A stretch of 64,000 bases of DNA from Candidatus Bipolaricaulota bacterium (GTDB lineage: Bacteria > Patescibacteriota > Patescibacteriia > UBA11705 > DATKZF01). The stretch's first letter is position 1; the number at the start of each line of letters is the position of its first letter. Of the stretch, positions 228 through 42,473 are shown piece after piece. The position numbers and the translations under genes were made by a program. The stretch is taken from positions 359,089-423,088 of the forward strand of contig DATKZF010000003.1 of NCBI GenBank assembly GCA_035528115.1, written 5' to 3'. The notes under the pieces were generated by a model. It was not told the origin of the DNA and did not search any database. It was given only the letters and a program-made list of their open reading frames with translations.

Positions 228-256
228 TTGACAAAAATGTTAAAATTTGATATAAT
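228..256 (+). promoter_or_regulatory. sigma70-like promoter (TTGACA, 17-nt spacer, TATAAT) driving the GC-rich minigene 383..751
   Basis: Perfect -35 TTGACA at 228-233 and -10 TATAAT at 251-256, read directly from the sequence. A second overlapping TTGACA lies at 219-224. Confidence 0.5.
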
Positions 257-382
257 ATAATAATTAGAATACCGACTCCGTAGCGATTTAATCGGAATTT
301 CCGTAAATTCTTATTAAATCGCTATCGAGACGATGGCCGCTTGGGAATAAACTCGAGCGCATCCCGAGACGGGAGAGAAACG

Positions 383-751
383 ATGGGAAACAAAATTTCT
401 CTGAGTAGGACTATGTGCATCGCCATGGAGATGGCCAGGGTTGCTCTGCGCCACTTTCCTCATACTGCTGGTTGCGGCTGGTTCGAACAGATCGACATCA
501 ACTGGAAGGATGATGACTCCAAAGACAGGCCGGTCGACTCTCTCTTCTTCGAGTTCACTGTCCGCGTCTTTTGTGACATCCGTGCCAAAGTCACATGCGC
601 ACTCGCTCCCCTTCATGGTTACCTCGAAGATGAACAGCATCTAGGCACTGTTTATCTTACCCTCCTCGATGACGACCTTGAGCGGGGGCAACTGCAGTTC
701 AAGTGTCATTTCGCCAATGGGGAGATCGTTGCTCAAACGACGTTTGGGTAA
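383..751 (+). CDS. hypothetical protein (GC-rich orphan minigene)
   Basis: ORF 341..751 trimmed to the ATG at 383, which follows GGGAGAGAAACG as a ribosome-binding site. GC content is well above its surroundings. A hairpin plus T-tract terminator lies at about 815-840. No family recognised. Confidence 0.4.
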   Translation: MGNKISLSRTMCIAMEMARVALRHFPHTAGCGWFEQIDINWKDDDSKDRPVDSLFFEFTVRVFCDIRAKVTCALAPLHGYLEDEQHLGTVYLTLLDDDLERGQLQFKCHFANGEIVAQTTFG

Positions 752-852
752 AGATCTCTGAGCGAACCACCTCACCGTTCTTCTGCCGCCATGTCCCACG
801 GACCGCTGGCGGTTTTTTAATTTTCCCCGAATTCAAGCTATAATAAAGTTAT

Positions 853-1536
853 ATGAAGATCAAAATATTCACGCAAATATTTTTTAAAGTTTTAGCCGCG
901 GTTTTTTTCGTTATTTTTTTAAATCCCCTGCTGGCCGGCCGGTGGAATTATTGGCAAGGCTGGCTTTTTAGCGTGGCCATGATTTTAATGATGATCATTG
1001 AATTGATTTTATTTAGAGACAAACTCGACCTGGCCAAAGAACGAATGAACCCCGGCCCCGGCGTCAAATGGTGGGACAAAATATTATTTCCCGCCTTTTC
1101 ATTGTTCACTTTGGCCGCCTGGGTAGTCGGGGTATTGGACACGGGCAGGTTCGGCCTCAGCGCGGCTTGGCCGATCAGGGCTTATGTCATCAGTTGGCTG
1201 GTATTTATCTTTTCAATTTTTATGTTCACTTGGCCGATGCTGGAAAACAAATGGTTCTCCAGCGTGGTCAGGCTCCAAAAAGACCGCGGACAGCTGGTCT
1301 GCATGACCGGTCCTTATAAATACGTCCGCCATCCCGGATATGTGGGCGGAATTTTAATGGCTTTAAGCCTCGGCGCCATCTTCGGCTCTTTATGGGCGCT
1401 GATTCCCGGCGGTTTGGCCGCGATATTTTTAATCATCAGAACTTACTTGGAAGATAAAACTTTAAAAAAAGAATTGCCCGGGTATTTGGAATATTCGAAA
1501 AAAGTTAAATACAGATTAATACCGAAAATTTGGTAA
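853..1536 (+). CDS. isoprenylcysteine carboxyl methyltransferase / phospholipid methyltransferase family membrane protein
   Basis: Multi-TM protein with the C-terminal RHPGYVGGIL...EDKTLKKELPGY motif typical of the ICMT/PEMT family. Confidence 0.55.
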   Translation: MKIKIFTQIFFKVLAAVFFVIFLNPLLAGRWNYWQGWLFSVAMILMMIIELILFRDKLDLAKERMNPGPGVKWWDKILFPAFSLFTLAAWVVGVLDTGRFGLSAAWPIRAYVISWLVFIFSIFMFTWPMLENKWFSSVVRLQKDRGQLVCMTGPYKYVRHPGYVGGILMALSLGAIFGSLWALIPGGLAAIFLIIRTYLEDKTLKKELPGYLEYSKKVKYRLIPKIW

Positions 1537-1665
1537 GACTCTTACTTAAACCTCCATGCAAACAACGTTCTTGTCTCCGATTTCAACACTCCGCGCATTT
1601 ATGACCCGGCCTTTCTCGTTGAAAATAAAAAACCGAAATGATAGACTGAATTCAATGAAAACTTT

Positions 1666-2853
1666 ATGAATCAAATTCAAAAATTAACAGTATCCAACAA
1701 ACGCGTCGGCCCGATTTTGGCGCGGCATCCGTGGATTTTCTCCGGCGCCATTAACAAAATTCCCGACGGCATCGAAAGCGGCGCGCCGGTCGCTGTTTTT
1801 GACGAACAACAAAACTTTCTGGCTCAAGGGTATTTCAATTCATATTCGCAAATCGCGGTTCGCGTCTGGAGTTATGATGAAAAGGAAATCGTGGATGACA
1901 AATTTTTCGAAAAACGAATCAAGCAAGCTTTTGAAATCCGTGAAAATTACGTTGAAAACAAAAAAACGGATGCGTTCAGGATAATCAACAGCGAAAACGA
2001 TTTTTTGCCCGGCCTGATCGCGGACAAATACGGCGATTATGTTGTTTTGCAATTTCACACCAAGGGCATTGAGCGCTGGAAAGATCAAATTTTAAAGGCC
2101 TTGATCAAAATTCTCAAACCGAAAGGCATTTATGAACGCTCCGATCTTCGCGTCAGGGAAATCGAGGCCGGAAAAAAACAAGCCGGACTTTTATACGGCA
2201 AAATTCCGGGAAAAATCAAAATTTCCGAAAACGGTTTTAAGTTTTGGGTGGATGTCGTTAACGGACAAAAAACCGGTTTTTTTCTCGATCAGCGCGCCAA
2301 GCGCTTAGCCTTGATGAAATATGTCGAAAACAAAAATGTTTTGAATTGCTTTTCATACACTGGCGGTTTTTCCGTGTACGCTTTGGCCGCCGGAGCGGAA
2401 AAAACGGTCAGCGTGGATTCCTCGGCCTCCGCGCTCGAGCTTGCCAAAGAAAATATCAAACTCAATAAGCTCGATTTGAAAAAATGCGAATTCATTTGCG
2501 AAGACGCGAAAAAATATTTGATCGCGCCACAGCAAAAATTCGATCTGATAATTCTGGATCCGCCGGCATTCATTAAAGACAGACGAAAAATCAAACAAGG
2601 CCAAGCCGGTTATCGATCCATAAATGAAATGGCCATGAAAATTTTGCCTGAAAACGGAATTTTACTGTCTTGCTCCTGCTCGGCGCATCTGCCGCTGTCC
2701 GACTTTCAATTTGTATTGACTCAGGCCGCGGCCAGAGCGAAAAAAACTTGCCGAATACTTGAAACTTACACTCATGATATCGATCACTTGCGTTTGTCGG
2801 CCTTTTCCGAAAGTGAATATTTAAAAAGCATCTATGCAATCATCACCGATTAA
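1666..2853 (+). CDS. rlmI: class I SAM-dependent rRNA (cytosine-C5) methyltransferase, RlmI/RlmK-like
   Basis: N-terminal PUA-like region followed by a Rossmann methyltransferase with the NCFSYTGGFSVYA and DLIILDPPAF motifs. Confidence 0.65.
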   Translation: MNQIQKLTVSNKRVGPILARHPWIFSGAINKIPDGIESGAPVAVFDEQQNFLAQGYFNSYSQIAVRVWSYDEKEIVDDKFFEKRIKQAFEIRENYVENKKTDAFRIINSENDFLPGLIADKYGDYVVLQFHTKGIERWKDQILKALIKILKPKGIYERSDLRVREIEAGKKQAGLLYGKIPGKIKISENGFKFWVDVVNGQKTGFFLDQRAKRLALMKYVENKNVLNCFSYTGGFSVYALAAGAEKTVSVDSSASALELAKENIKLNKLDLKKCEFICEDAKKYLIAPQQKFDLIILDPPAFIKDRRKIKQGQAGYRSINEMAMKILPENGILLSCSCSAHLPLSDFQFVLTQAAARAKKTCRILETYTHDIDHLRLSAFSESEYLKSIYAIITD

Positions 2854-7178: not shown

Positions 7179-7207
7179 TTGACAAAATATTAAATTTGTG
7201 GTAATTT
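7179..7207 (+). promoter_or_regulatory. sigma70-like promoter (TTGACA, 17 nt, TAATTT) for the minigene 7251..7421
   Basis: TTGACA at 7179-7184 and a weak -10 TAATTT at 7202-7207. Confidence 0.35.
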
Positions 7208-7250
7208 CTTAAGTTGCTTCACCCCCAACCCATGCGAGGAGGAGGACAGC

Positions 7251-7421
7251 ATGAACAGCGAAAGACTGGCGGCGATCAAGATGTTCCTCGAGCAGGCACG
7301 TGACCGCAACACGGCCATGCAGGCCCGCCACCCCGAGTGGAAGACACTCCTGAAGGCCAACCTGCCCGAACTGCCCGCCGCCGAGCCCGCCAACAGTGAG
7401 CCCATGCCCGCGGCCGCCTGA
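7251..7421 (+). CDS. hypothetical 56-aa protein encoded by a GC-rich minigene
   Basis: Not in the ORF track (<60 aa). Strong Shine-Dalgarno GAGGAGGAGG lies 6 nt before the ATG. About 65% GC. A weak hairpin plus T-tract follows at about 7462-7490. Translation: MNSERLAAIKMFLEQARDRNTAMQARHPEWKTLLKANLPELPAAEPANSEPMPAAA. Confidence 0.4.
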   Translation: MNSERLAAIKMFLEQARDRNTAMQARHPEWKTLLKANLPELPAAEPANSEPMPAAA

Positions 7422-7525
7422 TCCTCACCTCAACACCAACGCCCCCCCATTTCCCCCCAGCCGAATCGGCCGGGGCTTTTTTATCTCCTTAATTCTAAAG
7501 TCTTCCCCTTCTCCTTAATTCTCTT

Positions 7526-10422: not shown

Positions 10423-10719
10423 TTAAATGCTTTGGGACAAATCATCCCAATCCGGATTCATTTCCTCAATCAGCCGGATTTTCTTTTCCCTTCTCCATTT
10501 CTTCAATTGCTTTTCCCGCTCAATCGCTTCATTAATATCATTGAAATTTTCAAAATACACCAGTCTGGTGCAATTGTATTTTTTTGTAAAACCTTCAATT
10601 ATTTTATCTTGGTGTTCAGCCACTCTTCTGACCAAATCGTTCGTTACTCCAACGTATAACGTTCTTTTATAGCTTGCCATTATATAAACATGGTAATTGT
10701 TTTCAAACATATGCATCAT
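10423..10719 (-). CDS. GIY-YIG nuclease superfamily protein (YhbQ/UPF0213-like small nuclease)
   Basis: YVYIMASYKRTLYVGVTNDLVRRVAEH matches the GIY...YIG motif. 98 aa. Bracketed on both sides by the MITE-like inverted-repeat elements. Confidence 0.7.
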   Translation of the reverse strand: MMHMFENNYHVYIMASYKRTLYVGVTNDLVRRVAEHQDKIIEGFTKKYNCTRLVYFENFNDINEAIEREKQLKKWRREKKIRLIEEMNPDWDDLSQSI

Positions 10720-12888: not shown

Positions 12889-13176
12889 TTAAATACTCTG
12901 TGATAAATCATCCCAACACCCATTCATTGATTCAATCAATTGAATCTTCTTTTCTCTTCTCCACTTTTTTAATTGCTTTTCCCTATCAATAGCTTCATTT
13001 ATATCATTGAAAAGTTCATAATACACAAGACTGGCGCAATTATACTTTTTCGTAAAACCTTCAAAAACTTTATCCTTGTGCTCACTGACTCTTCTCTTCA
13101 AATCATTTGTTACCCCAACATATAATGTTCTTTTAAAACTTGCCATTATATAAACATAATAATCATTTTCAAACAT
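12889..13176 (-). CDS. GIY-YIG nuclease superfamily protein (paralog of 10423..10719)
   Basis: YVYIMASFKRTLYVGVTNDLKRRVSEH. About 75% identical to the first copy. Bracketed by GCGGAGAAATCTTTTCCAA upstream and TTAGGAAAAGATCTCTCCGC downstream. Confidence 0.7.
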   Translation of the reverse strand: MFENDYYVYIMASFKRTLYVGVTNDLKRRVSEHKDKVFEGFTKKYNCASLVYYELFNDINEAIDREKQLKKWRREKKIQLIESMNGCWDDLSQSI

Positions 13177-13247: not shown

Positions 13248-13508
13248 TTATTTCAACGGGTCATTACCCCCTTTCGACCACGGATTGCACCTCATTATCC
13301 GCCAGACGCCTTTGGTGCCGCCGCGAATAAGACCGTATTTTTCAATGGCTTGATAAGTGTATTCGGAACACGTGGGATGGAACTTGCAAAAACCTTGAGG
13401 GAAAAGGTCTTTCAGCCAGCCGTGGTCGAATGAAAAAACGCGTTGATAAAATTTTATCAATTTCAAAACGAGAAATTTGGGAATATTAACAATGAATGAA
13501 AAAATCAT
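13248..13508 (-). CDS. yidD: membrane protein insertion efficiency factor YidD
   Basis: HPTCSEYTYQAIEKYGL...RCNPWSKGGNDP matches the YidD/DUF37 signature. Sits in the conserved rpmH-rnpA-yidD context. Confidence 0.8.
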   Translation of the reverse strand: MIFSFIVNIPKFLVLKLIKFYQRVFSFDHGWLKDLFPQGFCKFHPTCSEYTYQAIEKYGLIRGGTKGVWRIMRCNPWSKGGNDPLK

Positions 13509-13867
13509 TTGACGATCAATCTTAATTTTCTAAAAATCTGGTCAACATCTCTTTCGAGTCGAGCGAAATCCGCGTCCGCAATGCCTTTTTGAGCGATGAT
13601 CAAAACATCATATCCCCCGGAGATCCGAGGCAGCCGCGCTCTGACGATTTCCCGCAACCGCCTTTTGATCAAATTGCGTTTGGTGGCGCGCTTATCGACT
13701 TTGGTGGAAATCACAAAAGCGAATCGGCTTATTTCGCTCCGGTTTTTTAGACTTTTAATAATAAGGTCGGGCGTGGAATTGGAATATCCTCCCGATTTTC
13801 TAAATTTCGGCCCGAAAAACTTGTCGAAATCTTTTTTTTGGGTTATGCGATGAAGTCTTTTAAGCAT
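13505..13867 (-). CDS. rnpA: ribonuclease P protein component
   Basis: Basic 120-aa protein (KRNLIKRRLREIVR...) with a 4-nt overlap onto yidD. Conserved position downstream of rpmH. Confidence 0.8.
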   Translation of the reverse strand: MLKRLHRITQKKDFDKFFGPKFRKSGGYSNSTPDLIIKSLKNRSEISRFAFVISTKVDKRATKRNLIKRRLREIVRARLPRISGGYDVLIIAQKGIADADFARLERDVDQIFRKLRLIVK

Positions 13868-14037
13868 ATTGAATAGGGGGCTAAAGAAGTCTTAAGAGGG
13901 CGGGTCGAGGTGAAGGGACAAGCGCGGGAGAAGGCAGACAAATTTTATTCGGGGTAGGCGGAAATTCGGATCACAACGCTCTCCCCTTAATATTAGCTTA
14001 TATATTGGAAAAAGAAAAAGGCCACGCGACCGTGACC

Positions 14038-14175
14038 TTAAGCTGATAATTTTTTTCTGCCTCTCTGGCGTCGAGTTTTCAAGATCGCTTGTCCGCTTTT
14101 ATCGCTCATTCTTTTTCTAAAGCCATGCTTTTTGCTCCTTTTTCTGGCAGTCGGCTGATATGTTCTTTTGGGCAT
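14038..14175 (-). CDS. rpmH: 50S ribosomal protein L34
   Basis: Not in the ORF track (45 aa). Reverse-strand translation: [45 protein letters not shown]. Followed on the minus strand by the hairpin GGTCACGGTCGCGTGGCC plus a T-tract at about 14008-14036. Confidence 0.85.
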
Positions 14176-14237
14176 ATTTAAAAGTTACTTTAATAATAAA
14201 ATTATTCTAACAAAGGAACGTCGTTTTGTCAACTGAC

Positions 14238-14326
14238 GCGGCCGCGGCCGGCGCGCAATCGCGCGCGTAGGAACAGGGCATTACCCTGTTCCTACATCGG
14301 CGACACATTCGTCGCCGCCGGCCGCT
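14238..14326. repeat. GC-rich multi-hairpin palindromic element, copy 3 (inside the rpmH-dnaA intergenic/origin region)
   Basis: Core palindrome GTAGGAACAGGGCATTACCCTGTTCCTAC at 14268-14296. Second hairpin GGCGACacattcGTCGCC shows compensatory changes relative to copies 1 and 2. Confidence 0.8.
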
Positions 14327-14329
14327 GAT

Positions 14330-14529
14330 TTGCATAATCCCAAAAATTCTATACAATGAATTTATATTATTCACACCTAATGCACAGCTTGCCAACTTTA
14401 TCCGCCTTGCGACAAATATTATCCACAGAAAAATTGTGTTATAATACGAACACAAAAAAATTCCCATATTTCCACTTGTTTTTACCTCTTTAAAATAAAA
14501 ATAAAGAAAAATTAATCCCCATTTTTCCT
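14330..14529. promoter_or_regulatory. oriC part 1 / dnaA promoter region with DnaA boxes
   Basis: Perfect DnaA box TTATCCACA at 14419-14427. One-mismatch box TTATTCACA at 14367-14375 and TTTATCCGC at 14397-14405. AT-rich. Confidence 0.55.
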
Positions 14530-15924
14530 ATGACTCAAGAAAATGAACAACTCTGGCAAACAGTGCTGGGGGAATTGGAGCTCAATTTGAGCAAGGCCAG
14601 CTTCACCACCTGGTTCAAGAACACCTTTATTCTCGACAACGAGGATGGCAGGATCATTATCGGCGTGCCCAACACTTTTTCTCAGGCATGGCTGAAACAG
14701 AAATATCATAATGATATTTTTAAGACATTGCAGAATCTGACAGGGAAAAGAATCAAAGACGTCAATTATAAAGTTCAGAATAAAAAAGACTTCAGACCCA
14801 CGGAAAAAATTCCGGTTCCCGTGGTCGAAGGGGTCGTTCGCGAAGAACTCATTTCCTCTCAGCCGACCACGCCTCTTCTCGAACAAAATAGCGGCGCGTA
14901 TCAAAACATTAACCGCAATTACGCTTTTGTCAGTTTTATAGTTGGTAAAAACAATGAATTGGCGCACGCCGCGGCCAAGGCCGTGGCCGAAAATCCGGGA
15001 TTCACTTATAATCCCCTTTTTATTTACGGCGGGGTCGGACTGGGAAAAACCCATCTGCTTCAATCCATTGGCAATGAAATCCTCATTAAAAACAGCCAAA
15101 AAAAGATTTTATACGTCACTTGCGAACAATTCACCAATGATTTTATCAATGGTATTTCTTCGGGCAATTCCGGTAAATTCCAATCTTATTATCGCGGTCC
15201 GGACGTGCTTTTAATAGACGACATTCAATTTTTAACCGGCAAAGAAGGCACGCAAGAAGCTTTCTTTCATACGTTCAATGATCTGCATCAACGAAACAAG
15301 CAAATAGTTATCACTTCGGATCGGCCGCCGAAAGCCATTGCCACTCTCGAGGACAGGCTTCTTTCAAGGTTTGAGTGGGGCATGATTGCCGATATTTCCC
15401 AGCCGGACATGGAAACGAGAATGGCTATTTTGGAGAAAAAATGCCTTGAAAAAAACTTTAATCTGAATAGGGACATTGTTCAATACATCACCCAAAACAT
15501 TCAAAACAACGTTCGGGAACTCGAAGGAGCTCTCAATAAGATTATCGCTTATCATCAATTGAATAAAATAGAACCGACGCTGGAAAACATTAAAAAAATA
15601 CTATTCTCTTTAAGCAATGCCGGCGGACAAAAAAACTCAGTCACTCCGCGGCACTTGATTGAAACCGTGGGTAAATTTTACGAAATAGGCCTTGAGGACA
15701 TTACAGGCAAGTGCAGACAAAAACGATTGGCCTTTCCCAGACAAATAATAATGTATTTGATGAGAGAAGAACTCAGGGAGTCTTATCCTTCAATCGGCCA
15801 AGAATTGGGAGGCAGGGATCATACCACGGCCATGCACGCGCACAGTAAAATTTTAAACTTGCTCGAAACGGATGAAAAGCTCAGACAAGAAATAAACCTG
15901 CTCAAACAACTGCTGTATCAATAA
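14530..15924 (+). CDS. dnaA: chromosomal replication initiator protein DnaA
   Basis: Walker A GGVGLGKTHLL, the LLIDDIQFL sensor, and the C-terminal DNA-binding helix DHTTAMHAHSKI. Confidence 0.95.
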   Translation: MTQENEQLWQTVLGELELNLSKASFTTWFKNTFILDNEDGRIIIGVPNTFSQAWLKQKYHNDIFKTLQNLTGKRIKDVNYKVQNKKDFRPTEKIPVPVVEGVVREELISSQPTTPLLEQNSGAYQNINRNYAFVSFIVGKNNELAHAAAKAVAENPGFTYNPLFIYGGVGLGKTHLLQSIGNEILIKNSQKKILYVTCEQFTNDFINGISSGNSGKFQSYYRGPDVLLIDDIQFLTGKEGTQEAFFHTFNDLHQRNKQIVITSDRPPKAIATLEDRLLSRFEWGMIADISQPDMETRMAILEKKCLEKNFNLNRDIVQYITQNIQNNVRELEGALNKIIAYHQLNKIEPTLENIKKILFSLSNAGGQKNSVTPRHLIETVGKFYEIGLEDITGKCRQKRLAFPRQIIMYLMREELRESYPSIGQELGGRDHTTAMHAHSKILNLLETDEKLRQEINLLKQLLYQ

Positions 15925-27638: not shown

Positions 27639-27707
27639 AAAAGCTCGAAAATATCGAGGAAGACGTCGACAGTTAGTGTGCTTCAGCACGACAAGGAGGA
27701 TAGAGCC

Positions 27708-27758
27708 ATGAACTGCCGGCAAGCAACGGATATCCTGCTCGATGAAAACGGAAGATGA
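27708..27758 (+). CDS. 16-aa leader peptide (MNCRQATDILLDENGR) translationally coupled to the downstream gene
   Basis: Strong SD AAGGAGGA 7 nt upstream of the ATG. Its TGA stop overlaps the downstream start codon as ATGA. Confidence 0.35.
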   Translation: MNCRQATDILLDENGR

Positions 27759-28105
27759 ACATGCCGAAGAAAAGCAAACCGGCTTCAAGTGCCCCTGCCC
27801 CGGATTTTGTGGAAGCATTTGCGGCCATTCGCGAAAAGCTTGGCTGCACTGATGAGAAATTGGGGCAAATCATCGCATTTGCGCTGGTCAGAGATCGTCG
27901 AATTGCGGCATTTTTCTCGACCACGCGCGATGGCGCGAAGCAATTCCGTGACATCGCGAGGCACATGAGGGATTGCCCCTGTTGCAGTCTCGCGCTTCAT
28001 CTGATCATGTCCAGCGTGTACGAGGTGCGCCTGGAAAACAAAAAAAAGGCGAAGACAAAACCTTCGCCTCGCAAGCAGTCAGTACCGACCAAAAAGGCCC
28101 AGTAG
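27755..28105 (+). CDS. putative zinc-binding anti-sigma-factor-like protein (HxxxCxxC ZAS motif)
   Basis: ARHMRDCPCCSLALHL contains H-x3-C-x2-C. Lys/Pro-rich basic tail. GC-rich. Confidence 0.35.
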   Translation: MNMPKKSKPASSAPAPDFVEAFAAIREKLGCTDEKLGQIIAFALVRDRRIAAFFSTTRDGAKQFRDIARHMRDCPCCSLALHLIMSSVYEVRLENKKKAKTKPSPRKQSVPTKKAQ

Positions 28106-28111
28106 CCTAAG

Positions 28112-28162
28112 CTCTCATGAGCCATTCGGCAACGCGGATCCAACATCGGGTCCGCTTTTTTA
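28112..28162 (+). terminator. shared terminator-like repeat R1 (GCCATTCGGCAACGCGGATCCAACATCGGGTCCGC plus T-tract)
   Basis: Near-identical copies at 29330-29395 and 29737-29780, each directly after a plus-strand minigene. Confidence 0.5.
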
Positions 28163-28213
28163 TTTTAAAATTTTTCTGAAATTGAAAAATGACCCTTGTG
28201 AAGAGCCACCTTG

Positions 28214-28753
28214 TTAAAAGTCTTGATCCGGAATCAGGCCGGCAATGCCACCGTTCACTAAACGGCGATGACTGATCTGAACCAGTGGAACCCGGCCCCC
28301 CTTAAATGTCGTGAAACCATGGCGTTGGGTTCTGTCCTCTATTGTCGCCACTCTGCTCCTAACTCGACGCAAATCGTCTTGCAGATCCTCCAACCGACCG
28401 TCAAGTTTCGAGAGATCCTTGCGGAGGCCGTCTTGTCCCTTTCTCACCTCTTCGCGCAGAGCGTCCTGACCCTGCTTCATCTTTCCCAGGTCGTCCGCAA
28501 GGGTTCCCACGCGGGCGTCGAGGTGATCCTGACCCTGCTTCATCTTTCCCAGGTCGTCCGCAAGGGTTCCCACGCGGGCGTCGAGGTGATCCTGACACTG
28601 CTTCATCTTTTCCAGGTCGTCCGCAAGGGTTCCCACGCGGGCGTCGAGGTGATCCTGACACTGCTTCACCTCCTTGCGGAGGGCGTCCTGGCCCGCCTTC
28701 ACTTCCTTGATACCTACTAGAATCTCACTTGTGTTGTCGAATTGCGTTTCCAT
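28214..28753 (-). CDS. coiled-coil protein with three tandem 21-aa repeats (QDHLDARVGTLADDLGKMKQG)
   Basis: Three copies of a 63-nt tandem DNA repeat at about 28440-28640. SD GAGAGGGA lies before the ATG. Architecture resembles the AT-rich ORF 62816..63163. The plus-strand ORF 28268..28720 is its antisense image. Confidence 0.5.
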   Translation of the reverse strand: METQFDNTSEILVGIKEVKAGQDALRKEVKQCQDHLDARVGTLADDLEKMKQCQDHLDARVGTLADDLGKMKQGQDHLDARVGTLADDLGKMKQGQDALREEVRKGQDGLRKDLSKLDGRLEDLQDDLRRVRSRVATIEDRTQRHGFTTFKGGRVPLVQISHRRLVNGGIAGLIPDQDF

Positions 28754-28869
28754 TGTTCAATCCCTCTCGAATTGGGGTGATGACACAAAACAAACAATTT
28801 AAAAATATCATTTATAAATACCAAAGGCAATAGGAAGAAACAACGGAGCTATTTTAAAATAAGCTGGCA

Positions 28870-28898
28870 TTGACAGTTTTTATGGAAAATGATATAAT
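28870..28898 (+). promoter_or_regulatory. sigma70 consensus promoter (TTGACA, 17 nt, TATAAT)
   Basis: Perfect hexamers at 28870-28875 and 28893-28898. Confidence 0.55.
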
Positions 28899-28956
28899 TA
28901 AATGTTGTTTTTCCACAGATTTTGACCTGTTTTCAACCAAGTAAAGGGGGCCTGCC

Positions 28957-29316
28957 ATGAGTGATGAGAGATTCAGCGCAGATGAGTTGGAGGAGTACAG
29001 AGTCTGGGGAAAGAGAATGGCGCGCAGGGCAAGGCAAGCCGACGCGCTGTATGCGCAAGTTGGGGCGGAAGTCAGCGCAAAGGTGGAAGCTGCCGAGCGC
29101 GCGCCAACACTAGAGGCGGTTCACTTCCTTGTCAGTCATTTCAAGCTGACGCCGAAGGAGTGGATGTACCTGTACTGGCGCTACGCTATGCGCCTTCATC
29201 ACAAGGACGTGGCTGTAAAGATGGAAGTGTCCCGCCCGCGCGTGTCACAGCTCGGCCGGGCAGTGCGAGAGAAGATGGGTCTGGAAGGTCTGAGGCTCCT
29301 CGGACGCAACAGCTGA
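28957..29316 (+). CDS. sigma-70 region 4-like helix-turn-helix DNA-binding protein
   Basis: KDVAVKMEVSRPRVSQLGRAVREKMGL resembles the sigma region 4.2 / LuxR-type HTH. The protein is too short for a full ECF sigma factor. SD AAAGGGGG before the ATG. Confidence 0.4.
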   Translation: MSDERFSADELEEYRVWGKRMARRARQADALYAQVGAEVSAKVEAAERAPTLEAVHFLVSHFKLTPKEWMYLYWRYAMRLHHKDVAVKMEVSRPRVSQLGRAVREKMGLEGLRLLGRNS

Positions 29317-29329
29317 CACATTTCACGGT

Positions 29330-29395
29330 CATTTCCGCCGACAGCTCTCATGAGCCATTCGGCAACGCGGATCCAACATCGGGTCCGCTTTTTGA
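29330..29395 (+). terminator. shared terminator-like repeat R2
   Basis: CTCTCATGAGCCATTCGGCAACGCGGATCCAACATCGGGTCCGC plus TTTTTG. The first 50 nt are identical to R1. Confidence 0.5.
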
Positions 29396-29412
29396 TTGAA
29401 TAAAGACTTTAA

Positions 29413-29440
29413 TTGACAATTAGGACGCTTTTATTATACT
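29413..29440 (+). promoter_or_regulatory. sigma70-like promoter (TTGACA, 16 nt, TATACT)
   Basis: Read directly from the sequence. Confidence 0.5.
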
Positions 29441-29486
29441 GAAAGCGAGACCGAGAAAATCTCGGCTAACAAAACAAGAAGGAGGA

Positions 29487-29720
29487 ATGGCGATGAAAGC
29501 GATATGGTATTTAATTGTGTATTTTATTCTACAAGCGTTTTTCACGGGCTTGCTGTATCTTCTTGTGGAGAAAATGTTATCACCGCATAAGATGGACTGG
29601 CCCAGCGAATACGGATGCTACATGTTTCTCCTGATCGTCATCGCAGGTGAACTTGCGACGTTGGGAGGTCTTCTCGTCGTGCATTTCGGAGGTCTTTTTA
29701 GGGATGAGGAGAAGTCTTAA
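29487..29720 (+). CDS. small two-helix membrane protein
   Basis: SD AAGGAGGA before the ATG. 77 aa, hydrophobic. Followed by repeat R3 at 29737-29780. Confidence 0.4.
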   Translation: MAMKAIWYLIVYFILQAFFTGLLYLLVEKMLSPHKMDWPSEYGCYMFLLIVIAGELATLGGLLVVHFGGLFRDEEKS

Positions 29721-29771
29721 AGAAACTACCAGTAACGGTATGCGGATCCAACATCGGGTCCGCTTTTCTTA

Positions 29772-30443
29772 TTATAAAATTTTGGTAGACTCGACTGATT
29801 TGGCTTCCTCGCGTTCTTTAAGCAGATAAATACCAAGATACGACAGCGGCGTGTAAAGCGCGCCCATGGCCACTTTGTACAGCCACCAAGTGATGATGAT
29901 GCTGATCAGGGTGCGAGTCGGATATATGCCCGCGAAAGCGATAATCATGAAAATCGTCGAGTCCAGCAATTGCGACCAAATGTTGGATAAAAGAGACCGC
30001 AACCAAAAAGCCTTTACTCCCAATTTTTCCCGGAAAAAGAAAAATGACAGCACGTCTTGATATTCGGCTATTAAAAAGGCGGTCAGCGACGCGACGCTCA
30101 TGCGAATGGACAGTCCGAAAATTTGATTATAGCCTTGCCTCGCCCATTCCCCATCCGCTGACCAAGGCATGGCCAGTGAGATAAATGAGTAGGCTATGAA
30201 CAAGGCCGCGCTGATGAATCCGGCTAATACAAAGAATTTGGCAAGGCGCTTGCCGAAAACTTCTCCGATGACGTCGGTCATTAAAAATACTACCGGGAAG
30301 GAAAACACGGCCACTGACAGATGCGAGCCGAAAATGAACGGCATCATTTTCAGACCGAGAGTATTGGCCGCAAAAAGCGAGGTGAGATAGATGGTCAACG
30401 CTATAATCAGTTTTTTGAATGATTTTTTGGTGAGATGAATCAT
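29772..30443 (-). CDS. yhhQ: queuosine precursor transporter, YhhQ/VUT family (DUF165)
   Basis: FLMTDVIGEVFG and SQLLDSTIFMIIAF match the family's conserved D/E and Q..DS motifs. Six or more TM helices. Confidence 0.6.
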   Translation of the reverse strand: MIHLTKKSFKKLIIALTIYLTSLFAANTLGLKMMPFIFGSHLSVAVFSFPVVFLMTDVIGEVFGKRLAKFFVLAGFISAALFIAYSFISLAMPWSADGEWARQGYNQIFGLSIRMSVASLTAFLIAEYQDVLSFFFFREKLGVKAFWLRSLLSNIWSQLLDSTIFMIIAFAGIYPTRTLISIIITWWLYKVAMGALYTPLSYLGIYLLKEREEAKSVESTKIL

Positions 30444-31262: not shown

Positions 31263-31514
31263 ATGGCTATGGGTCTTGCAAAGCATTTGCTACTCTGCGT
31301 AACGCTATTCCTAGCGTTTATGGCATTTTGGTATCTAACGATGGAAGGGTGGGCTAACGGCCAAGAAGGAGTCCAGTCGTGTGGTGGTGGATGCGGACGA
31401 ATTCTGTTTCTTCTGGAGGTCCTCTTGGCACAGACAGGCTCACTTTTGACGATGTGCATACTGCACTGGAGTGGACTGCCTCGTGGCAAGAGGCGAGATT
31501 CTCAGCAGTCCTAG
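31263..31514 (+). CDS. hypothetical small membrane protein (island cargo)
   Basis: SD GAAGGGGGA before the ATG. One or two hydrophobic helices and a CGGGCG motif. Trimmed from ORF 31137..31514. Confidence 0.3.
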   Translation: MAMGLAKHLLLCVTLFLAFMAFWYLTMEGWANGQEGVQSCGGGCGRILFLLEVLLAQTGSLLTMCILHWSGLPRGKRRDSQQS

Positions 31515-31856
31515 TTCCGAAGTTGTTCTGGCGGAACCGATCATCCGTGTTCCGCCTTTTTGTTTTCCCGCAAGAAACTCATGCGGCTTGATGCAATAGA
31601 TGACTCTCGGGTCATCGAACAGATGGGTCGGAAACGCCATTCCGACCCATTTCCATTGAACAGCGCTCATCGACAGCGAAGAAGACCGTCAATTCTTGCG
31701 CCGTCGTAGCCCTGCACGTAGTCGGACCCAATCACAGCGAACGGCAAACTGAGGTTGTCGGACCCGAGGATCCTTGATAGTCGTCGCGCCGACTCAGGAT
31801 CGCGCTCCACGTCGCGGCGACGATAGAATTGGAGCACGGTTGCCCTTCGTCCGCAA

Positions 31857-32360
31857 CTACGCGGAAATGTCTGCCAATTCCAATGACATGCTCGCCGCAA
31901 GATCGCCTGGACTGAATCTCATGCCACAGTACTCATCGCCACCGGCTCCGGTGACCAGCGCTCTCCGAAGAACGTTCCTATCAATGATCCTCCGATCACA
32001 AGACGATACAGCCACCGGCGGGACTCCACCAATACGAAACTGGGTCACCGACTCGATCTGCTGGGGCGTGGCGAATCGAAGTTTCTTGACGCCGACCAGT
32101 TCCGCGACCCTGCGAACGTCCAGTCGGTCAGATCCTAGTATTATGCAAGCGATGAATACATCCTCCCTTGGAGCATGCAAGACGAGTGTCTTGATGATGT
32201 TTTCCGATGCGGTTTCGAGGGCGGCAGAGGCCTGCGAGGTCGTCTTTCCAGACTGCTCGTGCATCATGAACTGGGCCCTCAGACCTACGCAACTTGCCAG
32301 TCTCTTCGCGCGGTCGATGGCTCCGGTGTCCAACTGGCGCTCCTTTCCAATCAGGTTGGC
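31857..32360 (-). CDS. YbaK/ProX-like aminoacyl-tRNA deacylase domain protein (island cargo)
   Basis: IKTLVLHAP...RLDVRRVAELVGVKKLRFATPQQIESVTQFRIGGVPPVA parallels the YbaK KTLV...GGVSP pattern. The 5' end is uncertain: no in-frame ATG at the expected position, so a GTG/TTG start is possible. The ORF-track entry extends to 32642. Confidence 0.45.
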   Translation of the reverse strand, partial: ANLIGKERQLDTGAIDRAKRLASCVGLRAQFMMHEQSGKTTSQASAALETASENIIKTLVLHAPREDVFIACIILGSDRLDVRRVAELVGVKKLRFATPQQIESVTQFRIGGVPPVAVSSCDRRIIDRNVLRRALVTGAGGDEYCGMRFSPGDLAASMSLELADISA

Positions 32361-32934
32361 GTGACAGACTTTGGGCGCACGTCTGAACGGTGGTAGGGGC
32401 GTGACGGACGGGGAGGTCGTGCTTGCACCCACAGCGGCACCCTCGAGGAACGAGGTCAGCGATTGGCCTGTGCCATGCCTCACCTGGCGTTGGGAACATG
32501 TCCGGCCGTCCGTTTCCGCGGGCACGCGGTGTACTCCTCTGCTGGTGTTGTTCATACTACATGCTTGGCCGCCGGTCGTCTTGGCCGCCGGCATTTGTGT
32601 TTCACTCATGCTAATTGTACGGAGATTGCGCATGCTTGTCAACCAGGCATCTCACTGAATTCCTCAAGCCGGCCTGCGTGGGTTCAGCGCAAACGGGGCC
32701 GTTGACAGCCTTCCAGTTCGCTGCTACGAAGACCACAGAGATCTCTGCGCCCGTGCAAAATGGATGGCCCGGTAGCTGCAGGATCGAACTGACGCCCGTC
32801 TTCACGACCTCTCGGGTCTTCCGTTCGCAACGGCCTCGCTCGGTCGCACCGGCCACGCGGAGCGAATGAGACAAGGTCGCAACCATCGCGACGGCATAAG
32901 TGTAGAATATATATACTACGTGAAGATAGATGTT

Positions 32935-32980
32935 AGAGCGAGAGAGATAGACACCTAGGAATGTCTATCTCTCTCGCTCT
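32935..32980. repeat. perfect 19-bp-arm palindrome AGAGCGAGAGAGATAGACA-cctaggaa-TGTCTATCTCTCTCGCTCT
   Basis: Arms at 32935-32953 and 32962-32980 are exact reverse complements. The 8-nt spacer contains CCTAGG. It lies about 350 bp upstream of the serine recombinase gene. Confidence 0.85.
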
Positions 32981-32985
32981 CTATC

Positions 32986-33297
32986 TTGAGTACTCTTGGA
33001 CGAGCCGTGTGCGACCGGGACCGCCTGCCGCTGCATGCTTTCGGTGTCTCCGCCACCCCCTGCCCGGACCAACCCAGGCGCGATACGCTTGTGGTGTTCA
33101 ACTACATGCCATTGACACAAGATGACATCGAGGATCTCAAGGGGCTGCTCAGGGCCGAGTACGGCGAGGAGGTGCCGCACGACGAGGCCTGGGACGTTGG
33201 CCTTTCTCTAGTCGAGCTGTGTCGAGTCGCTCTCCGGCCAGCCCCCGCGGCAAGGGAGTCAGACCCGACTGTGGATAACTCGCAGCTTGCCAAATAG
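32986..33297 (+). CDS. hypothetical small acidic protein upstream of the recombinase (possible accessory/directionality factor)
   Basis: ORF in GC-rich DNA. The segment MPLTQDDIEDLKGLLRAEYGEEVPHDEAWDVGLSLVEL looks protein-like. Low confidence because GC-rich DNA yields many spurious ORFs. Confidence 0.25.
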   Translation: MSTLGRAVCDRDRLPLHAFGVSATPCPDQPRRDTLVVFNYMPLTQDDIEDLKGLLRAEYGEEVPHDEAWDVGLSLVELCRVALRPAPAARESDPTVDNSQLAK

Positions 33298-33337
33298 CCT
33301 GGCCAGCTCTACGATCCACAATGAACGCTCGCCACCT

Positions 33338-34954
33338 ATGAAGCATTGCTATATTTACGCTAGAAAATCGTCGGAGTCCGAGGACCGACAGGTTCTGTCC
33401 ATCGACTCGCAGGTCAGTGAGCTCGAGCAGCTGGCCGTCCGGCTGGGACTGCCGGTCACCCGGGTGTTTTCGGAGTCGAAGTCCGCCAAGACTCCCGGGA
33501 GGCCGGTTTTCACCGACATGCTAGAACGTCTTCGTAATCCAGAGGGGAGCGTGGTGCTGTGTTGGAAACTCGATCGGCTGGCCCGAAACCCGCTTGATGG
33601 CGGGGCAGTGATTTGGGCGGTCGAGGAGCGCCAGATCGGGGAGATCGTCACTCCGGGTCGGACCTTCCGCAACACCGCCGACGACAAGTTCTGGATGCAA
33701 CTCGAATTCGGGATGGCCAAGAAGTACGTGGACGACTTGTCTGACAACATCAAGCGCGGAAACAGGGCCAAGCTCCAGCGCGGCCAGATCCCGGGGCAGG
33801 TCCCCCTCGGCTACACCAAGGACCCCTGCACAGGCGACACGATCCCCGATCCGGAACGGTTCGAGTTGGTTCGGCGCATTTGGCAGCGGCTTGTTGATGG
33901 CCACCGGCCGGCAGAGATCCTGAGGGTCGCCTCGAGCGACTGGGGTCTGCGAACGCGAGGTTCCAAGAGGACCGCGAGCGGGCCGCTATCGCCGTCGTAC
34001 TTCTACCGGTTGCTCTCGAATCCGTTTTACGCCGGCGTGGTTCAGCGTGCGGGCCAGGTCTACGTCGGTGCCCACCAGGCGATGGTCAGCCAACATGAGT
34101 TCGACCTGGCCCAGAGGATGTTGGCGGGCAGGTCCAACTCGAGATCTCAGCGCCACGAGCACACCTACGCCGGGCTACTGCGCTGCGGGGTGTGTGGCCG
34201 CATGTTCACCGGAGAGAGCCACACCAACCGCTACGGATCCACGTACGTGTACTACCGGTGCACTCGAAAGCGGCTGGGTAGCAGGGTGTGCCCCCAGCCC
34301 TACGTGCCCGAGAAGGTCATCGACGAGCAGGTGCTCGACTACCTCGGAAGGCTCTCAGTGCCGAGGCAGTTTGTGGACTGGGCCTGCAAGCGCCTCGAGC
34401 GCCTCGCAGCAGAGGATCAAGCGACCGAGCAGGTGGCGCAGTCGTCGATCGAGAAGGGCCTCGCTGCGGCCCAACGCAAACTCGAGAACCTGACGCAGCT
34501 GCGATTGTCCGAGATGATTGGTGACGAAGAATTCGTACTAGAGCGAGCCAGACTGCTGGACGAGGTCGCCGGTTTCAAGGCCCGCCTGGCCGCGCCCTCG
34601 ACCACGGGTCCCGCGTGGCTGCAGCCCACGAAGGAGGCGCTCGCCCTCGCCTCAAGGGCCGAAAATCTGTATCGCAGTGGACTGAAGGACGACAAACGGA
34701 CCATCCTGCGGGCCATCGGGTCGAACTTCTTCATCAGGGACCGGATTGTGCTAATCCAAGCCAAGAAACCGTTTCGCATTCTGGCCGCCGCCCGCGATTC
34801 CTCCGAGCCCGAGCCACCGCGGGTCGAACCCCGGGATTTTGGCTCAGCCAAACAAAAAAACGAGCCATCGAGTGGTCGTTTTCTCCTGTGGTGGACCCTA
34901 AGGGATTCGAACCCTTGGCCTCCTCCATGCCATGGAGGCGCTCTAGCCAACTGA
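33338..34954 (+). CDS. large serine recombinase (resolvase/invertase catalytic domain, recombinase domain and zinc-ribbon)
   Basis: N-terminal YIYARKSSESEDRQVLSIDSQ carries the catalytic Ser motif. The central region matches the recombinase domain. Zinc ribbon CGVCGRMFTG...YYRCTRKRLGSRVCPQP. Start trimmed to the ATG at 33338. The 3' end overlaps tRNA-Ala, so the true stop is uncertain. Confidence 0.85.
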   Translation: MKHCYIYARKSSESEDRQVLSIDSQVSELEQLAVRLGLPVTRVFSESKSAKTPGRPVFTDMLERLRNPEGSVVLCWKLDRLARNPLDGGAVIWAVEERQIGEIVTPGRTFRNTADDKFWMQLEFGMAKKYVDDLSDNIKRGNRAKLQRGQIPGQVPLGYTKDPCTGDTIPDPERFELVRRIWQRLVDGHRPAEILRVASSDWGLRTRGSKRTASGPLSPSYFYRLLSNPFYAGVVQRAGQVYVGAHQAMVSQHEFDLAQRMLAGRSNSRSQRHEHTYAGLLRCGVCGRMFTGESHTNRYGSTYVYYRCTRKRLGSRVCPQPYVPEKVIDEQVLDYLGRLSVPRQFVDWACKRLERLAAEDQATEQVAQSSIEKGLAAAQRKLENLTQLRLSEMIGDEEFVLERARLLDEVAGFKARLAAPSTTGPAWLQPTKEALALASRAENLYRSGLKDDKRTILRAIGSNFFIRDRIVLIQAKKPFRILAAARDSSEPEPPRVEPRDFGSAKQKNEPSSGRFLLWWTLRDSNPWPPPCHGGALAN

Positions 34955-34965
34955 GCTAAGGGCCC
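34889..34965 (-). tRNA. tRNA-Ala (anticodon GGC), G3:U70, CCA encoded
   Basis: Reverse complement GGGCCCTTAGCTCAGTTGGCTAGAGCGCCTCCATGGCATGGAGGAGGCCAAGGGTTCGAATCCCTTAGGGTCCACCA. Confidence 0.85.
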
Positions 34966-34988
34966 TTGGTTTGGGAATTGGAAACTGA

Positions 34989-35063
34989 TGGTGGGCGCAG
35001 GAGGACTCGAACCTCCAACCAATGGCTTAAGAGGCCACTGCTCTACCATTGAGCTATGCGCCC
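34989..35063 (-). tRNA. tRNA-Lys (anticodon CTT), CCA encoded
   Basis: Reverse complement GGGCGCATAGCTCAATGGTAGAGCAGTGGCCTCTTAAGCCATTGGTTGGAGGTTCGAGTCCTCCTGCGCCCACCA. Confidence 0.8.
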
Positions 35064-35068
35064 GAGAC

Positions 35069-35145
35069 TGGTGCAGCCGGAAGGATTTGAACCCTCAACC
35101 CCTTGGTCCGAAGCCAAGTGCTCTATCCAGTTGAGCTACGACTGC
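35069..35145 (-). tRNA. tRNA-Arg (anticodon TCG), CCA encoded
   Basis: Reverse complement GCAGTCGTAGCTCAACTGGATAGAGCACTTGGCTTCGGACCAAGGGGTTGAGGGTTCAAATCCTTCCGGCTGCACCA. Confidence 0.75.
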
Positions 35146-35151
35146 ATTAGA

Positions 35152-35209
35152 AATAAACCTTGCCTGTCCGCCGAAGCTCCGAGCATAGCGAGGAGCGAAG
35201 GCGGAAGCT
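35152..35209. repeat. GC-rich insert (family shared with 17880-17945) flanked by a 16-nt direct repeat AGCTACGACTGCATTA that duplicates the tRNA-Arg 5' end
   Basis: Direct repeats at 35135-35150 and 35207-35222. Insert core CTTGCCTGTCCGCCGAAGCTCCGAGCATAGCGAGGAGCGAAGGCGG resembles GCTCCGACGAGCGGAGCGAGGAGGAGCGAAGGC next to tRNA-Gly. Confidence 0.55.
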
Positions 35210-35311
35210 ACGACTGCATTAAAAATGTTGACAATAGATTAACATTCGACTCGTTTTTTGGCAAGTCCGAGGCAATAAAAACTTAAGCAGCTTTGCCTAA
35301 GTTTTTCGGCA

Positions 35312-38308: not shown

Positions 38309-38446
38309 ATTGTTACGAATTACAATATTCTATTTAGCTTTTAGGTTATTTGTTACGAATTACAATCTGCTAAAGCATAAAGCCATAGAGGAATGTACTT
38401 CGTAACAATCGATTGGAAGCCAAGTGGAATATTGTAATTCGTAACG
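38309..38446. repeat. L-family element L1: inverted pair of units with 40-bp periodicity built on TTGTTACGAATTACAA
   Basis: Forward units at 38311 and 38351. Reverse-complement units follow (…ATTGTAATTCGTAACG at 38432). Forms an imperfect long hairpin of about 65 bp per arm. Confidence 0.75.
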
Positions 38447-40010: not shown

Positions 40011-40207
40011 TTGTTACGAATTACAAGATTCTAATTAGCTTTTAGGTTATTTGTTGCAAATTACAATCGACTATTTGGCTTTCAGGTTATCTGTTACGCC
40101 TACCTACCTGCCTGCCGGCAGGAATTACATTTATAGCTATATGCCATAGAATCTTGTAATTCGTAACAACCGCTTCGAAGCCAAATGAAATATTGTAATT
40201 CGTAACG
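40011..40207. repeat. L-family element L2 (three forward units, a GC-rich insert with palindrome CCTGCCGGCAGG, two inverted units)
   Basis: Unit starts at 40012, 40052, 40092 and, reverse-complemented, at 40152 and 40192. Exact 40-bp spacing. Confidence 0.75.
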
Positions 40208-41741: not shown

Positions 41742-41759
41742 AGTTTATTATTTGAATCA

Positions 41760-41933
41760 TTGTTACGAATTACATTCACTAAAAAGCTCTTTATTTGTAT
41801 TGTTACGAAGTACAAGATTCCATTTGGCCTACGGACGAATATTACAAATTACATTCACCTATAGCCTTAAGCCTGAGAATCTTGTAATTCGTAACAAATA
41901 ACCTGAAAGCTAAATAGAATATTGTAATACGTA
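41760..41933. repeat. L-family element L3
   Basis: Forward units at 41761 and 41801. Inverted units at 41881 and 41921. Right arm GATTGTAATTCGTAACAAATAACCTGAAAGCTAAATAGAATATTGTAATACGTAAC. Confidence 0.75.
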
Positions 41934-41976
41934 ACATTATTGTATCAATTTATCATCTGCGCCGGATAACCGCAAA

Positions 41977-42005
41977 TAAAAAAAGTCTCGAATTGGTCGA
42001 GGACT
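41977..42005. terminator. bidirectional hairpin terminator AGTCTCGAattggTCGAGGACT
   Basis: Flanked by an A-tract on one side and a T-tract on the other. Confidence 0.45.
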
Positions 42006-42374
42006 TTATTGTCCTGCGGGGTCTGTGAGCCCCTTGATTTTGCCGTATCTTTTCCACTTGTACCACCAAAAGGAAAATCGGACATCTCCCTTCTCGGCTT
42101 TTTGCTCGAGCATGGCCGCCAGTTGTCTGATCATGGCGTTCCCTTCTTTTTGGGTCTGGAAACAATAGTCCGGAAGCAGGCGATTGTTGAGCTTTGCCCA
42201 CATGTTGCCGTCCCAGATCATGATGATGACATAGCCGCTGTAGCCGTAGTTGGTATGCCTGCCCGCGGCCGCCTTGCGCCCTTCCCCATCCATTTTGGAT
42301 GTTATCCTGATATCACCGACTTCGAGTTCCCCGACTCCTTCGCTTTCGTAATCGCGGTGGAGAAAAACTCTCAT
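42006..42374 (-). CDS. hypothetical protein (GC-rich orphan minigene)
   Basis: Strong SD AAAGGAGG 8 nt before the ATG, giving MRVFLHRDYES... About 52% GC. Trimmed from ORF 42006..42434. No family recognised. Confidence 0.4.
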   Translation of the reverse strand: MRVFLHRDYESEGVGELEVGDIRITSKMDGEGRKAAAGRHTNYGYSGYVIIMIWDGNMWAKLNNRLLPDYCFQTQKEGNAMIRQLAAMLEQKAEKGDVRFSFWWYKWKRYGKIKGLTDPAGQ

Positions 42375-42473
42375 TGCCCGCCTCCTTTGGCATTGGTTCA
42401 TTCGCAGGGTATCATGGGAAAATAAATAATTCAAATAAAAAACAGCCGCCCTGGCCGTTTTTTTTATTTATAA

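Follow-up and report, generated by a model that had tools for sequence, protein, structure and literature searches.

Small stand-alone genes of probably mixed origin in a Patescibacteria chromosome

Phage morons were first defined in phages HK97 and HK022. They carry their own promoter and terminator, have a GC content unlike that of their neighbours, and are seen as additional DNA separating genes that are direct neighbours in related genomes (PMC3594210). Four short genes (here g1 to g4) that had been compared with such elements were analysed within a 64-kb stretch of a metagenome-assembled natural chromosome; this whole stretch is referred to as the window. An initial annotation had described the four as GC-rich orphans with idealised expression signals in an AT-rich genome, and had proposed that they were horizontally delivered, moron-like cassettes. 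The reading preferred here, at a probability of roughly 0.6, is that g1 to g4 are real small stand-alone genes, with g2 and g3 probably recent horizontal acquisitions, g4 inherited, and g1 a species-specific orphan. We infer the transcription, translation and horizontal origin of the units from their sequence. The open reading frames (ORFs) are as follows, with GC3 denoting GC content at third codon positions.

383-751, plus strand: g1 ORF, 122 aa; GC 0.51, GC3 0.59
7251-7421, plus strand: g2 ORF, 56 aa, HUT22485.1; GC 0.67, GC3 0.86
23771-24157, plus strand: g3 ORF, 128 aa, HUT22502.1; GC 0.59, GC3 0.74
42006-42374, minus strand: g4 ORF, 122 aa, basic; GC 0.52, GC3 0.65

In the public annotation g1 starts at 413 (112 aa, HUT22479.1) and the GenBank version of g4 has 131 aa (HUT22516.1). 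All four products were deposited as hypothetical proteins (locus tags beginning VMX18_) in a metagenome-assembled genome (MAG) labelled Candidatus Bipolaricaulota. This label looks wrong, because the closest genomes by the flanking methyltransferase (57-74% identity) were Magasanikbacteria-type Patescibacteria, as they were for several flanking genes. Some related public MAGs were also implausibly named ("uncultured Gammaproteobacteria", "Udaeobacter"). The window contains cell-envelope polysaccharide genes, genes for RuvB, RNase J, RNase III, NusB, PNPase, S15 and ComM, and eight tRNAs.

Sharp compositional boundaries in a MAG could mean that the GC-rich segments are assembly chimeras built from the reads of GC-rich organisms. 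However, three independent assemblies (Logan SRR8554643, ENA ERZ27256828 and JGI 3300031565) agreed with the window at every base over stretches of 6.4-17.4 kb that contain g1, g2 and g3, and therefore the compositional mosaics are not assembly chimeras. The exact g2 and g3 proteins were found on contigs of up to 762 kb in JGI 3300031565 and Logan SRR8554643, with g3 additionally in ENA ERZ27256828, and the exact g4 protein was found on three contigs (JGI, ENA and Logan). Promoters and terminators also frame the units neatly and the flanking genes are intact. The chimera explanation, ruled out by the identity of the assemblies, was accordingly left with next to no probability.

Coding capacity was tested by a chi-square of GC by codon position, and composition was compared with a background of 39 housekeeping genes within the window. 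Periodicity was significant in g1 (p = 6e-4), g2 (5e-5), g3 (2.5e-10) and g4 (2e-4), and the annotated frame had the best codon likelihood in each. All four showed a sense-type pattern, with GC1 above GC2 and GC3 far higher, and the antisense ORFs looked like a non-coding strand. On these sequence signals g1 to g4 were accepted as protein-coding, in agreement with the initial annotation.

A different explanation is that some units, chiefly g2 and possibly g1 too, do not encode proteins and represent non-coding insertions of high GC content or small RNAs. Open frames easily arise in GC-rich inserts because stop codons are AT-rich, and the chance of a 56-codon open frame at the GC content of g2 (0.67) was P = 0.37. 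Long ORFs lie on both strands of g1, g2 and g4, the g1 leader contains a strong hairpin, the orphans have no family or structural match, and a relative (L007, below) has a structured non-coding GC-rich element (z = -4.5) at the g2 site. We nevertheless consider this explanation very unlikely, in view of the significant sense-type pattern in each unit and of perfect Shine-Dalgarno (SD) sequences 5-8 nt ahead of the ATG, given how seldom SD hexamers occur in this genome. In addition, the predicted g2 transcript is not unusually stable (z = -1.26), and none of the four units had an Rfam match, either at the gathering score or at E <= 0.5. Because a 56-codon frame is unremarkable at 67% GC, the protein-coding status of g2 is the least secure of the four.

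The 39 housekeeping genes had a mean GC of 0.428 (sd 0.035, maximum 0.541) and a mean GC3 of 0.502 (sd 0.058, maximum 0.639). Relative to these, GC z-scores were 6.8 for g2, 4.7 for g3, 2.5 for g1 and 2.6 for g4, and GC3 z-scores were 6.2, 4.2, 1.6 and 2.6, respectively. The strongest compositional outlier was g2. Thus g2 and g3 are compositionally foreign, and g1 and g4 lie within the host GC range. RNase J (GC 0.54) exceeds both g1 and g4, and ComM, which adjoins g4, has a GC of 0.50 and a GC3 of 0.59. The description of the units as GC-rich outliers consequently stands for g2 and g3, which lie beyond all 39 housekeeping genes, and fails for g1 and g4, which fall below the housekeeping GC maximum. 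The genome itself, at 44.5% GC, is AT-rich to a moderate degree only, and the contrast holds for all four units only against their intergenic flanks (GC 0.31-0.38, save 0.49 to the right of g3). Such flanks are an unsuitable reference, since AT content is normally higher between genes than within them. High expression was ruled out as the cause of the high GC3 of g2 and g3, since S15 (GC3 0.47) and PNPase (GC3 0.52) are ordinary in this respect. The codon table of a GC-rich recombinase island in the window (described below) gave a better fit than that of the host for both genes (-3.75 versus -4.17 for g2 and -3.89 versus -4.14 for g3).

These values bear on the possibility that all four are small native genes, specific to the lineage and evolving fast, that were never transferred, with GC-richness and SD sequences marking a special native class, for example small regulated proteins. 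The GC3 of g1 lies inside the host range, as this would predict, whereas the GC3 of g2 (0.86) and g3 (0.74) is above that of every host gene (maximum 0.64). A native class also leaves the GC-rich synonymous sites unexplained, given the GC3 of 0.47 in S15.

The expression signals detected around the four ORFs were as follows.

219-246, plus strand: g1 promoter, upstream member of a tandem, TTGACA-16-TAAAAT, 11/12, TG before the -10 box
228-256, plus strand: g1 promoter, second of the tandem, TTGACA-17-TATAAT, 12/12, TG before the -10 box
273-332, plus strand: g1 leader hairpin, near-perfect, AT-rich, 28-nt arms, no U-tract behind it
785-818, plus strand: g1 intrinsic terminator, GCCGCCA...TGGCGG then a T-run
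7180-7208, plus strand: g2 promoter, TTGACA-17-TAATTT with TG, 9/12
7236-7245, plus strand: g2 SD, GAGGAGGAGG, with the ATG at 7251
7455-7482, plus strand: g2 intrinsic terminator, CCCCAGCC-GAATC-GGCCGGGG then a T-run; hairpin seen in the computed fold
23653-23681, plus strand: g3 promoter, TTGACA-17-TAATAT with TG, 10/12
23758-23765, plus strand: g3 SD, AAAGGAGG
24251-24290, plus strand: g3 intrinsic terminator, 11-bp stem, akin to a module of the 27.6-29.8 kb cluster (GCGGATyCA...GTCCGCTnTTTTATTTTAAA)
42382-42389, minus strand: g4 SD, AAAGGAGG
41978-42004, minus strand: g4 terminator, GTCCTCGA-CCAAT-TCGAGAC then a T-run

Each unit is therefore laid out as a predicted monocistronic gene, which would comprise a sigma-70-type promoter (weak or absent in g4, upstream of which no match of 9/12 or better was found), a leader, an SD, a short ORF and an intrinsic terminator. 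All signals listed by the initial annotation were located where it had placed them, namely the 12/12 TTGACA-17-TATAAT promoter of g1, the SD sequences of g2 and g4, and the acidic g3 with an AAGGAGG-type SD. The SD of g1 is weak (GGGAGAG at 371-377).

This predicted architecture would set the units apart from the bulk of the genes, which have SD-less starts behind AT-rich or nearly absent leaders. Only 4 of the 41 housekeeping starts in the window had even a 4-nt SD core, as opposed to cores of at least 6 nt, at ideal spacing 5-8 nt before the ATG, in g2, g3 and g4. The regions upstream of these 41 starts are A/T-rich, with G at 13% from -15 to -5 and T at 76% at -1. Several housekeeping -10 boxes end just 7-13 nt before the ATG (ICMT 853, RuvB 19805, Wzy 7174 and YidD 13508), which suggests leaderless or very-short-leader mRNAs for these four genes. 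A scan of the window for a strong SD ahead of a start returned g2, g3 and g4 together with a membrane minigene at 29493, a double-zinc-ribbon gene (24317-24583), an alternative RhuM start and a 118-aa gene at 58620-58976. SD-led starts were uncommon in the relatives as well.

The claim that housekeeping genes lack the ribosome-binding sites of the units was thus borne out, and the parallel claim about promoters was contradicted. Promoters of 11/12 were also present upstream of tRNA-Gly, the rpmH/rnpA region, a SpoIID-like gene, two GIY-YIG genes and a tRNA-His/Arg pair; strong promoters occur generally in this genome. That the unit promoters resemble the genome's own is a further point for a native class of small genes. 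Of most interest here is the contrast between SD-less housekeeping genes and SD-led minigenes, and the division into an SD-less majority and an SD-led minority is of practical use for gene callers on these genomes.

The closest relative, L007, retains both Wzy-type genes that flank g2 but does not have g2 between them. In the equivalent gap (L007 13185-13400) it carries an unrelated GC-rich non-coding element of about 215 nt with a long hairpin (z = -4.5). Its spurious translations (FGYAQGRL, CPERSRRVEMTE) are, we presume, like those of a GC-rich palindromic repeat widespread in metagenome annotations. The hairpin motif was not found in the window. In the window, the AT-rich 30 bp of the g2 promoter also contain, on the opposite strand, a leaderless-type promoter for the Wzy gene starting at 7174.

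Absence from syntenic relatives was also observed for g3. Five relatives that have kept the RuvB gene, an 85-aa gene, and the bPH and SpoIID genes have no g3; polysaccharide genes come next instead, and the gene next to the g3 position also differs from that in the window. The g3 promoter is divergent from that of the SpoIID-like gene (23609-23581, minus strand). Metagenome scans returned nothing for the SpoIID-like protein and only distant relatives (identity <=72%) for RuvB. The existence of syntenic relatives without g2 and g3 argues against a purely native origin for these two genes.

The g3 protein is acidic (pI 4.1, 37 Asp+Glu), and its AlphaFold2 model is of low confidence (pLDDT 63), showing three helices after a disordered N-terminus. 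Its reading frame appears to have been longer or partly duplicated, as the following feature, read from the sequence, suggests.

24158-24208, plus strand: in-frame continuation of g3 beyond the TAA, 17 codons, GC-rich and acidic, LEAEGFEGCFEEDLEN followed by a stop codon

The continuation echoes the internal LEDEGFEPQPTLEEY, an LE(D/A)EGFE motif, which suggests a recent nonsense mutation or truncation, or an internal duplication.

Downstream of g3 lie a cluster of small genes and a GC-rich island.

27611-29772, plus strand: small-gene cluster with genes at 27755-28105, 28957-29316 and 29493-29720, each with a TTGACA promoter (11-12/12)
31337-35220, strand not assigned: island of 60% GC, with a large serine recombinase gene (33287-34954, plus strand) at its end

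All three cluster genes have the terminator hairpin GCGGATCCAACATCGGGTCCGC in common. In the first two it lies within a 3' module of 55 nt, at 98% identity between them; of this module the third has kept just the hairpin and T-run (62% over 55 nt). The gene at 28957-29316 encodes a 119-aa sigma-70 region-4 helix-turn-helix (HTH) protein, which has the motif LEEYRxWG in common with g3 (pairwise BLASTP, E = 6e-5). The cluster neighbours a RhuM gene, a GIY-YIG gene and the serine-recombinase island. At its 3' end the recombinase gene overlaps a minus-strand tRNA-Ala(ggc), with tRNA-Lys(ctt) and tRNA-Arg(tcg) coming after it. The island, probably an element that has integrated here, shows that mobile DNA of high GC content does enter this genome. 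Because its motif and terminator module are shared with the cluster near this island, g3 is best interpreted as the margin of a partly foreign accessory region (about 23.6-35.2 kb). The distance from g3 to the recombinase is about 9 kb, with host-composition genes between, and no phage structural genes were detected in the region. As a guess on a slender basis, the acidic g3 protein might act as a partner of the region-4 HTH protein, might oppose it, or might mimic DNA.

Several smaller features were observed in the same region. Between g3 and the RhuM gene, the gene at 24317-24583 (minus strand) encodes an 88-aa double-zinc-ribbon protein and has an AAGGAGT SD; public gene calls conflict here, with the small ORFs called differing between assemblies. 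The first cluster gene may carry a 16-codon upstream ORF overlapping its start. Inside the cluster, a GC-rich coiled-coil gene (28214-28753, minus strand) contains three near-identical 63-bp (21-codon) tandem repeats at 28464-28671.

The history of g4 is different. A single homologue (P0003, 61-63% identity) was found on a 38.8% GC contig of a related Patescibacteria type, where it lies directly upstream of comM, the same place that g4 occupies in the window. P0003 keeps an AAGGAGG, and its GC3 (0.33) matches the composition of its own genome. Over 111 aligned codons, g4 and P0003 differ by 36 synonymous and 41 amino-acid changes. Since the homologue is syntenic with comM, has kept the SD and is host-like in composition, g4 is an inherited, lineage-specific gene upstream of comM that is constrained at the protein level. 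Its AlphaFold2 model is poor (pLDDT 45). Two consequences follow. An SD alone is no mark of foreign origin in this lineage, because the homologue is also SD-led, and an inherited gene with a retained SD is what a native class of small genes would contain. Conversely, the homologue has taken on the GC3 of its 39% GC genome, so that long residence erases a GC bias, and this counts against such a class as the source of the bias in g2 and g3. The distribution of the units among relatives is therefore divided with respect to the cassette proposal, with g2 missing from L007 and g3 from five relatives on the one hand, and g4 present in the one relative examined on the other.

The remaining unit, g1, is a species-specific orphan that was placed neither with the foreign pair (g2 and g3) nor with the inherited g4. 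Its leader of about 125 nt contains the hairpin listed above (-43.1 kcal/mol, z = -4.5), which matched no known RNA family in Rfam.

Homologues were sought in large protein collections. Word-indexed searches of 5.8 billion clustered proteins returned only self-matches for g1 and g3, and an exhaustive HMMER search of 1.84 billion representatives returned only a self-match for g2. The search for g4 was word-indexed, as for g1 and g3, and returned the query and its one homologue. The designation as orphans was therefore sound for g1, g2 and g3, with g4 having this single relative. Family searches with g1 to g4 were empty in Pfam, PHROGs, PADLOC and NCBIfam, and sequence searches of the PDB gave nothing significant for the minigene proteins. 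Nothing was found in viral-contig scans of g1, g2, g3, the region-4 protein and the recombinase, or in a plasmid tblastn with g3. An attempt to reach a donor through the recombinase failed, its identity to known phage and plasmid recombinases being <=29%. A single DNA repeat or cassette family was ruled out, as there was no DNA similarity among the four units. In an all-against-all BLASTP, the link between g3 and the region-4 protein was the only one recovered; g1 to g4 are not one family at either the DNA or the protein level.

A number of these results weigh against recent acquisition of g2 and g3 as stand-alone genes. No donor, phage or plasmid homologue of the minigenes was found in any collection searched, and g1, g2 and g3 had no homologue even in the source metagenomes, which is odd for recent transfers that keep a GC3 of 0.74-0.86. 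The initial annotation had suggested looking for short direct repeats in the flanks; no convincing direct repeats or target-site duplications were found around the units. No mobility genes adjoin g1, g2 or g4, and the neighbours are BtpA/ICMT (g1), two Wzy-type genes (g2) and SfLAP/ComM (g4), with no phage genes adjacent. The genes flanking g1 are kept in no relative examined. Because L007 holds a non-coding GC-rich hairpin at the position of g2, this site may gather GC-rich DNA of various sorts. The chance expectation for the g2 frame given above is a further point against the preferred reading. Missing donor homologues and missing insertion scars are also what the native class of small genes would lead one to expect; taken with the GC3 values and the syntenic gaps, we judge that explanation rather unlikely. 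The absence of homologues may reflect either an unsampled donor pool or small, partly disordered proteins that have diverged beyond recognition.

With acquisition of g2 and g3 still preferred, the proposal of horizontally delivered moron-like cassettes is retained in part: it is supported for g2 and g3 by architecture, GC3 and absence from relatives, and it is opposed by the inheritance of g4, the unexceptional GC3 of g1 and the lack of a donor. The suggestion of one recipe with one origin was not upheld, as only g2 and g3 are foreign by composition, g4 is inherited and the four have no common family. Compared with phage morons, g2 and g3 are alike in architecture (a predicted promoter-to-terminator unit) and in composition, and would be chromosomal islets built like morons. 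With respect to GC content, g2 (0.67) and g3 (0.59) depart from the host (0.43 +/- 0.035), whereas g1 and g4 (about 0.52) are within its range. An own promoter is predicted from sequence for g1 (12/12), g2 (9/12 with TG) and g3 (10/12 with TG), and only a terminator for g4. By definition, phage morons form part of a phage or prophage genome, and the repressed prophage expresses them; in contrast, g1, g2 and g4 lie among chromosomal cell-envelope and housekeeping genes. Membership thus fails on the defining phage context, and the analogy is a good one for g2 and g3 as regards architecture and composition.

Two other described systems are comparable. ORFan genes and small islets are similar in their short length, lack of homologues outside the species, annotation as hypothetical proteins, deviant composition and patchy distribution. 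In bacteria, orphan and foreign genes generally have a higher AT content than the host genome; the genes described here deviate toward GC and have a canonical SD in a mostly SD-less genome. Serine-recombinase integrative elements at tRNA genes are represented in the window by the 60% GC island, which the codon usage of g2 and g3 resembles, but the scattered minigenes have no adjacent recombinase, att-like repeats or tRNA.

Units similar to g2 and g3 were found in relatives. In L014 (6509-7400), a TTGACA-17-TATATT promoter, a long leader and an AGGAGGA precede a 210-aa acidic ORF (GC3 0.82) with a terminator, in a locus of 39.8% GC. In L010 (10975-11320, minus strand), a TTGACA-17-TATGAT promoter and an AAGGAG precede a 57-aa membrane ORF (GC3 0.81) with a terminator. 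In L025 (13105-14245, minus strand), a TTGACA promoter and a weak SD precede a 274-aa lipoprotein-like ORF (GC3 0.82) with a terminator, in a locus of 35% GC. These three proteins are unrelated to one another and to g1 to g4. ORFs with GC3 > 0.70 made up about 1% of the ORFs in 816 kb of AT-rich relatives, a low-frequency recurrence such as sporadic gene acquisition would produce. A bulk comparison of SD presence with GC-richness in 937 ORFs gave no usable signal, since start codons are misplaced when the longest ORF is always taken.

On the examples of g2, g3, L014 and L010 (strong SD) and L025 (weak SD), a broader proposal can be put forward, which we regard as unlikely at present. Magasanikbacteria-like Patescibacteria would recurrently carry stand-alone units of consensus sigma-70 promoter, long leader, perfect SD, strongly GC-rich orphan ORF (GC3 0.74-0.88) and terminator, as chromosomal "morons" drawn from an unsampled GC-rich pool and set amid mostly SD-less genes. 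Such a pool might be a mobile element or the symbiont's host organism, and SD-led translation might allow the units to be expressed apart from the regular programme of the cell that carries them.

For the most part the finding is ordinary orphan-gene and gene-transfer biology, concerning four hypothetical proteins of mixed origin. If the foreign origin is true, reduced symbiont genomes of the Candidate Phyla Radiation (CPR) still take up and express foreign small genes, and composition together with translation-initiation mode can flag such genes. An identified donor could let the islets link uncultured Patescibacteria to hosts or mobile elements.

Further features of the window were recorded. 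An origin-type layout of minus-strand yidD and rnpA and plus-strand dnaA and dnaN was present at 13248-17319, at the minimum of cumulative GC skew. Near this origin, among polysaccharide and NUDIX genes, are two paralogous GIY-YIG genes (10423-10719 and 12889-13176, both minus strand) of about 95 aa and GC 0.29-0.34, each with an 11/12 promoter. Their homologues in the relatives L017 and L018 occupy other sites, and the two genes look like free-standing homing-endonuclease-type genes.

An AT-rich nested-palindrome element resembling a miniature inverted-repeat transposable element (MITE) was present in three intergenic copies (38312-38445, 40013-40206 and 41762-41935). The copies surround the M23 peptidase and ComM genes, with one in the gap between g4 and comM. 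Computed folds of the element gave z = -9.9 and -5.8, and Rfam returned spurious microRNA-like hairpins only. Each copy contains GTTACGAATTACAA four times, two per strand, spaced 40 nt apart. In total this motif had 13 matches versus 0.5 expected, including a solo motif at 51049-51062.

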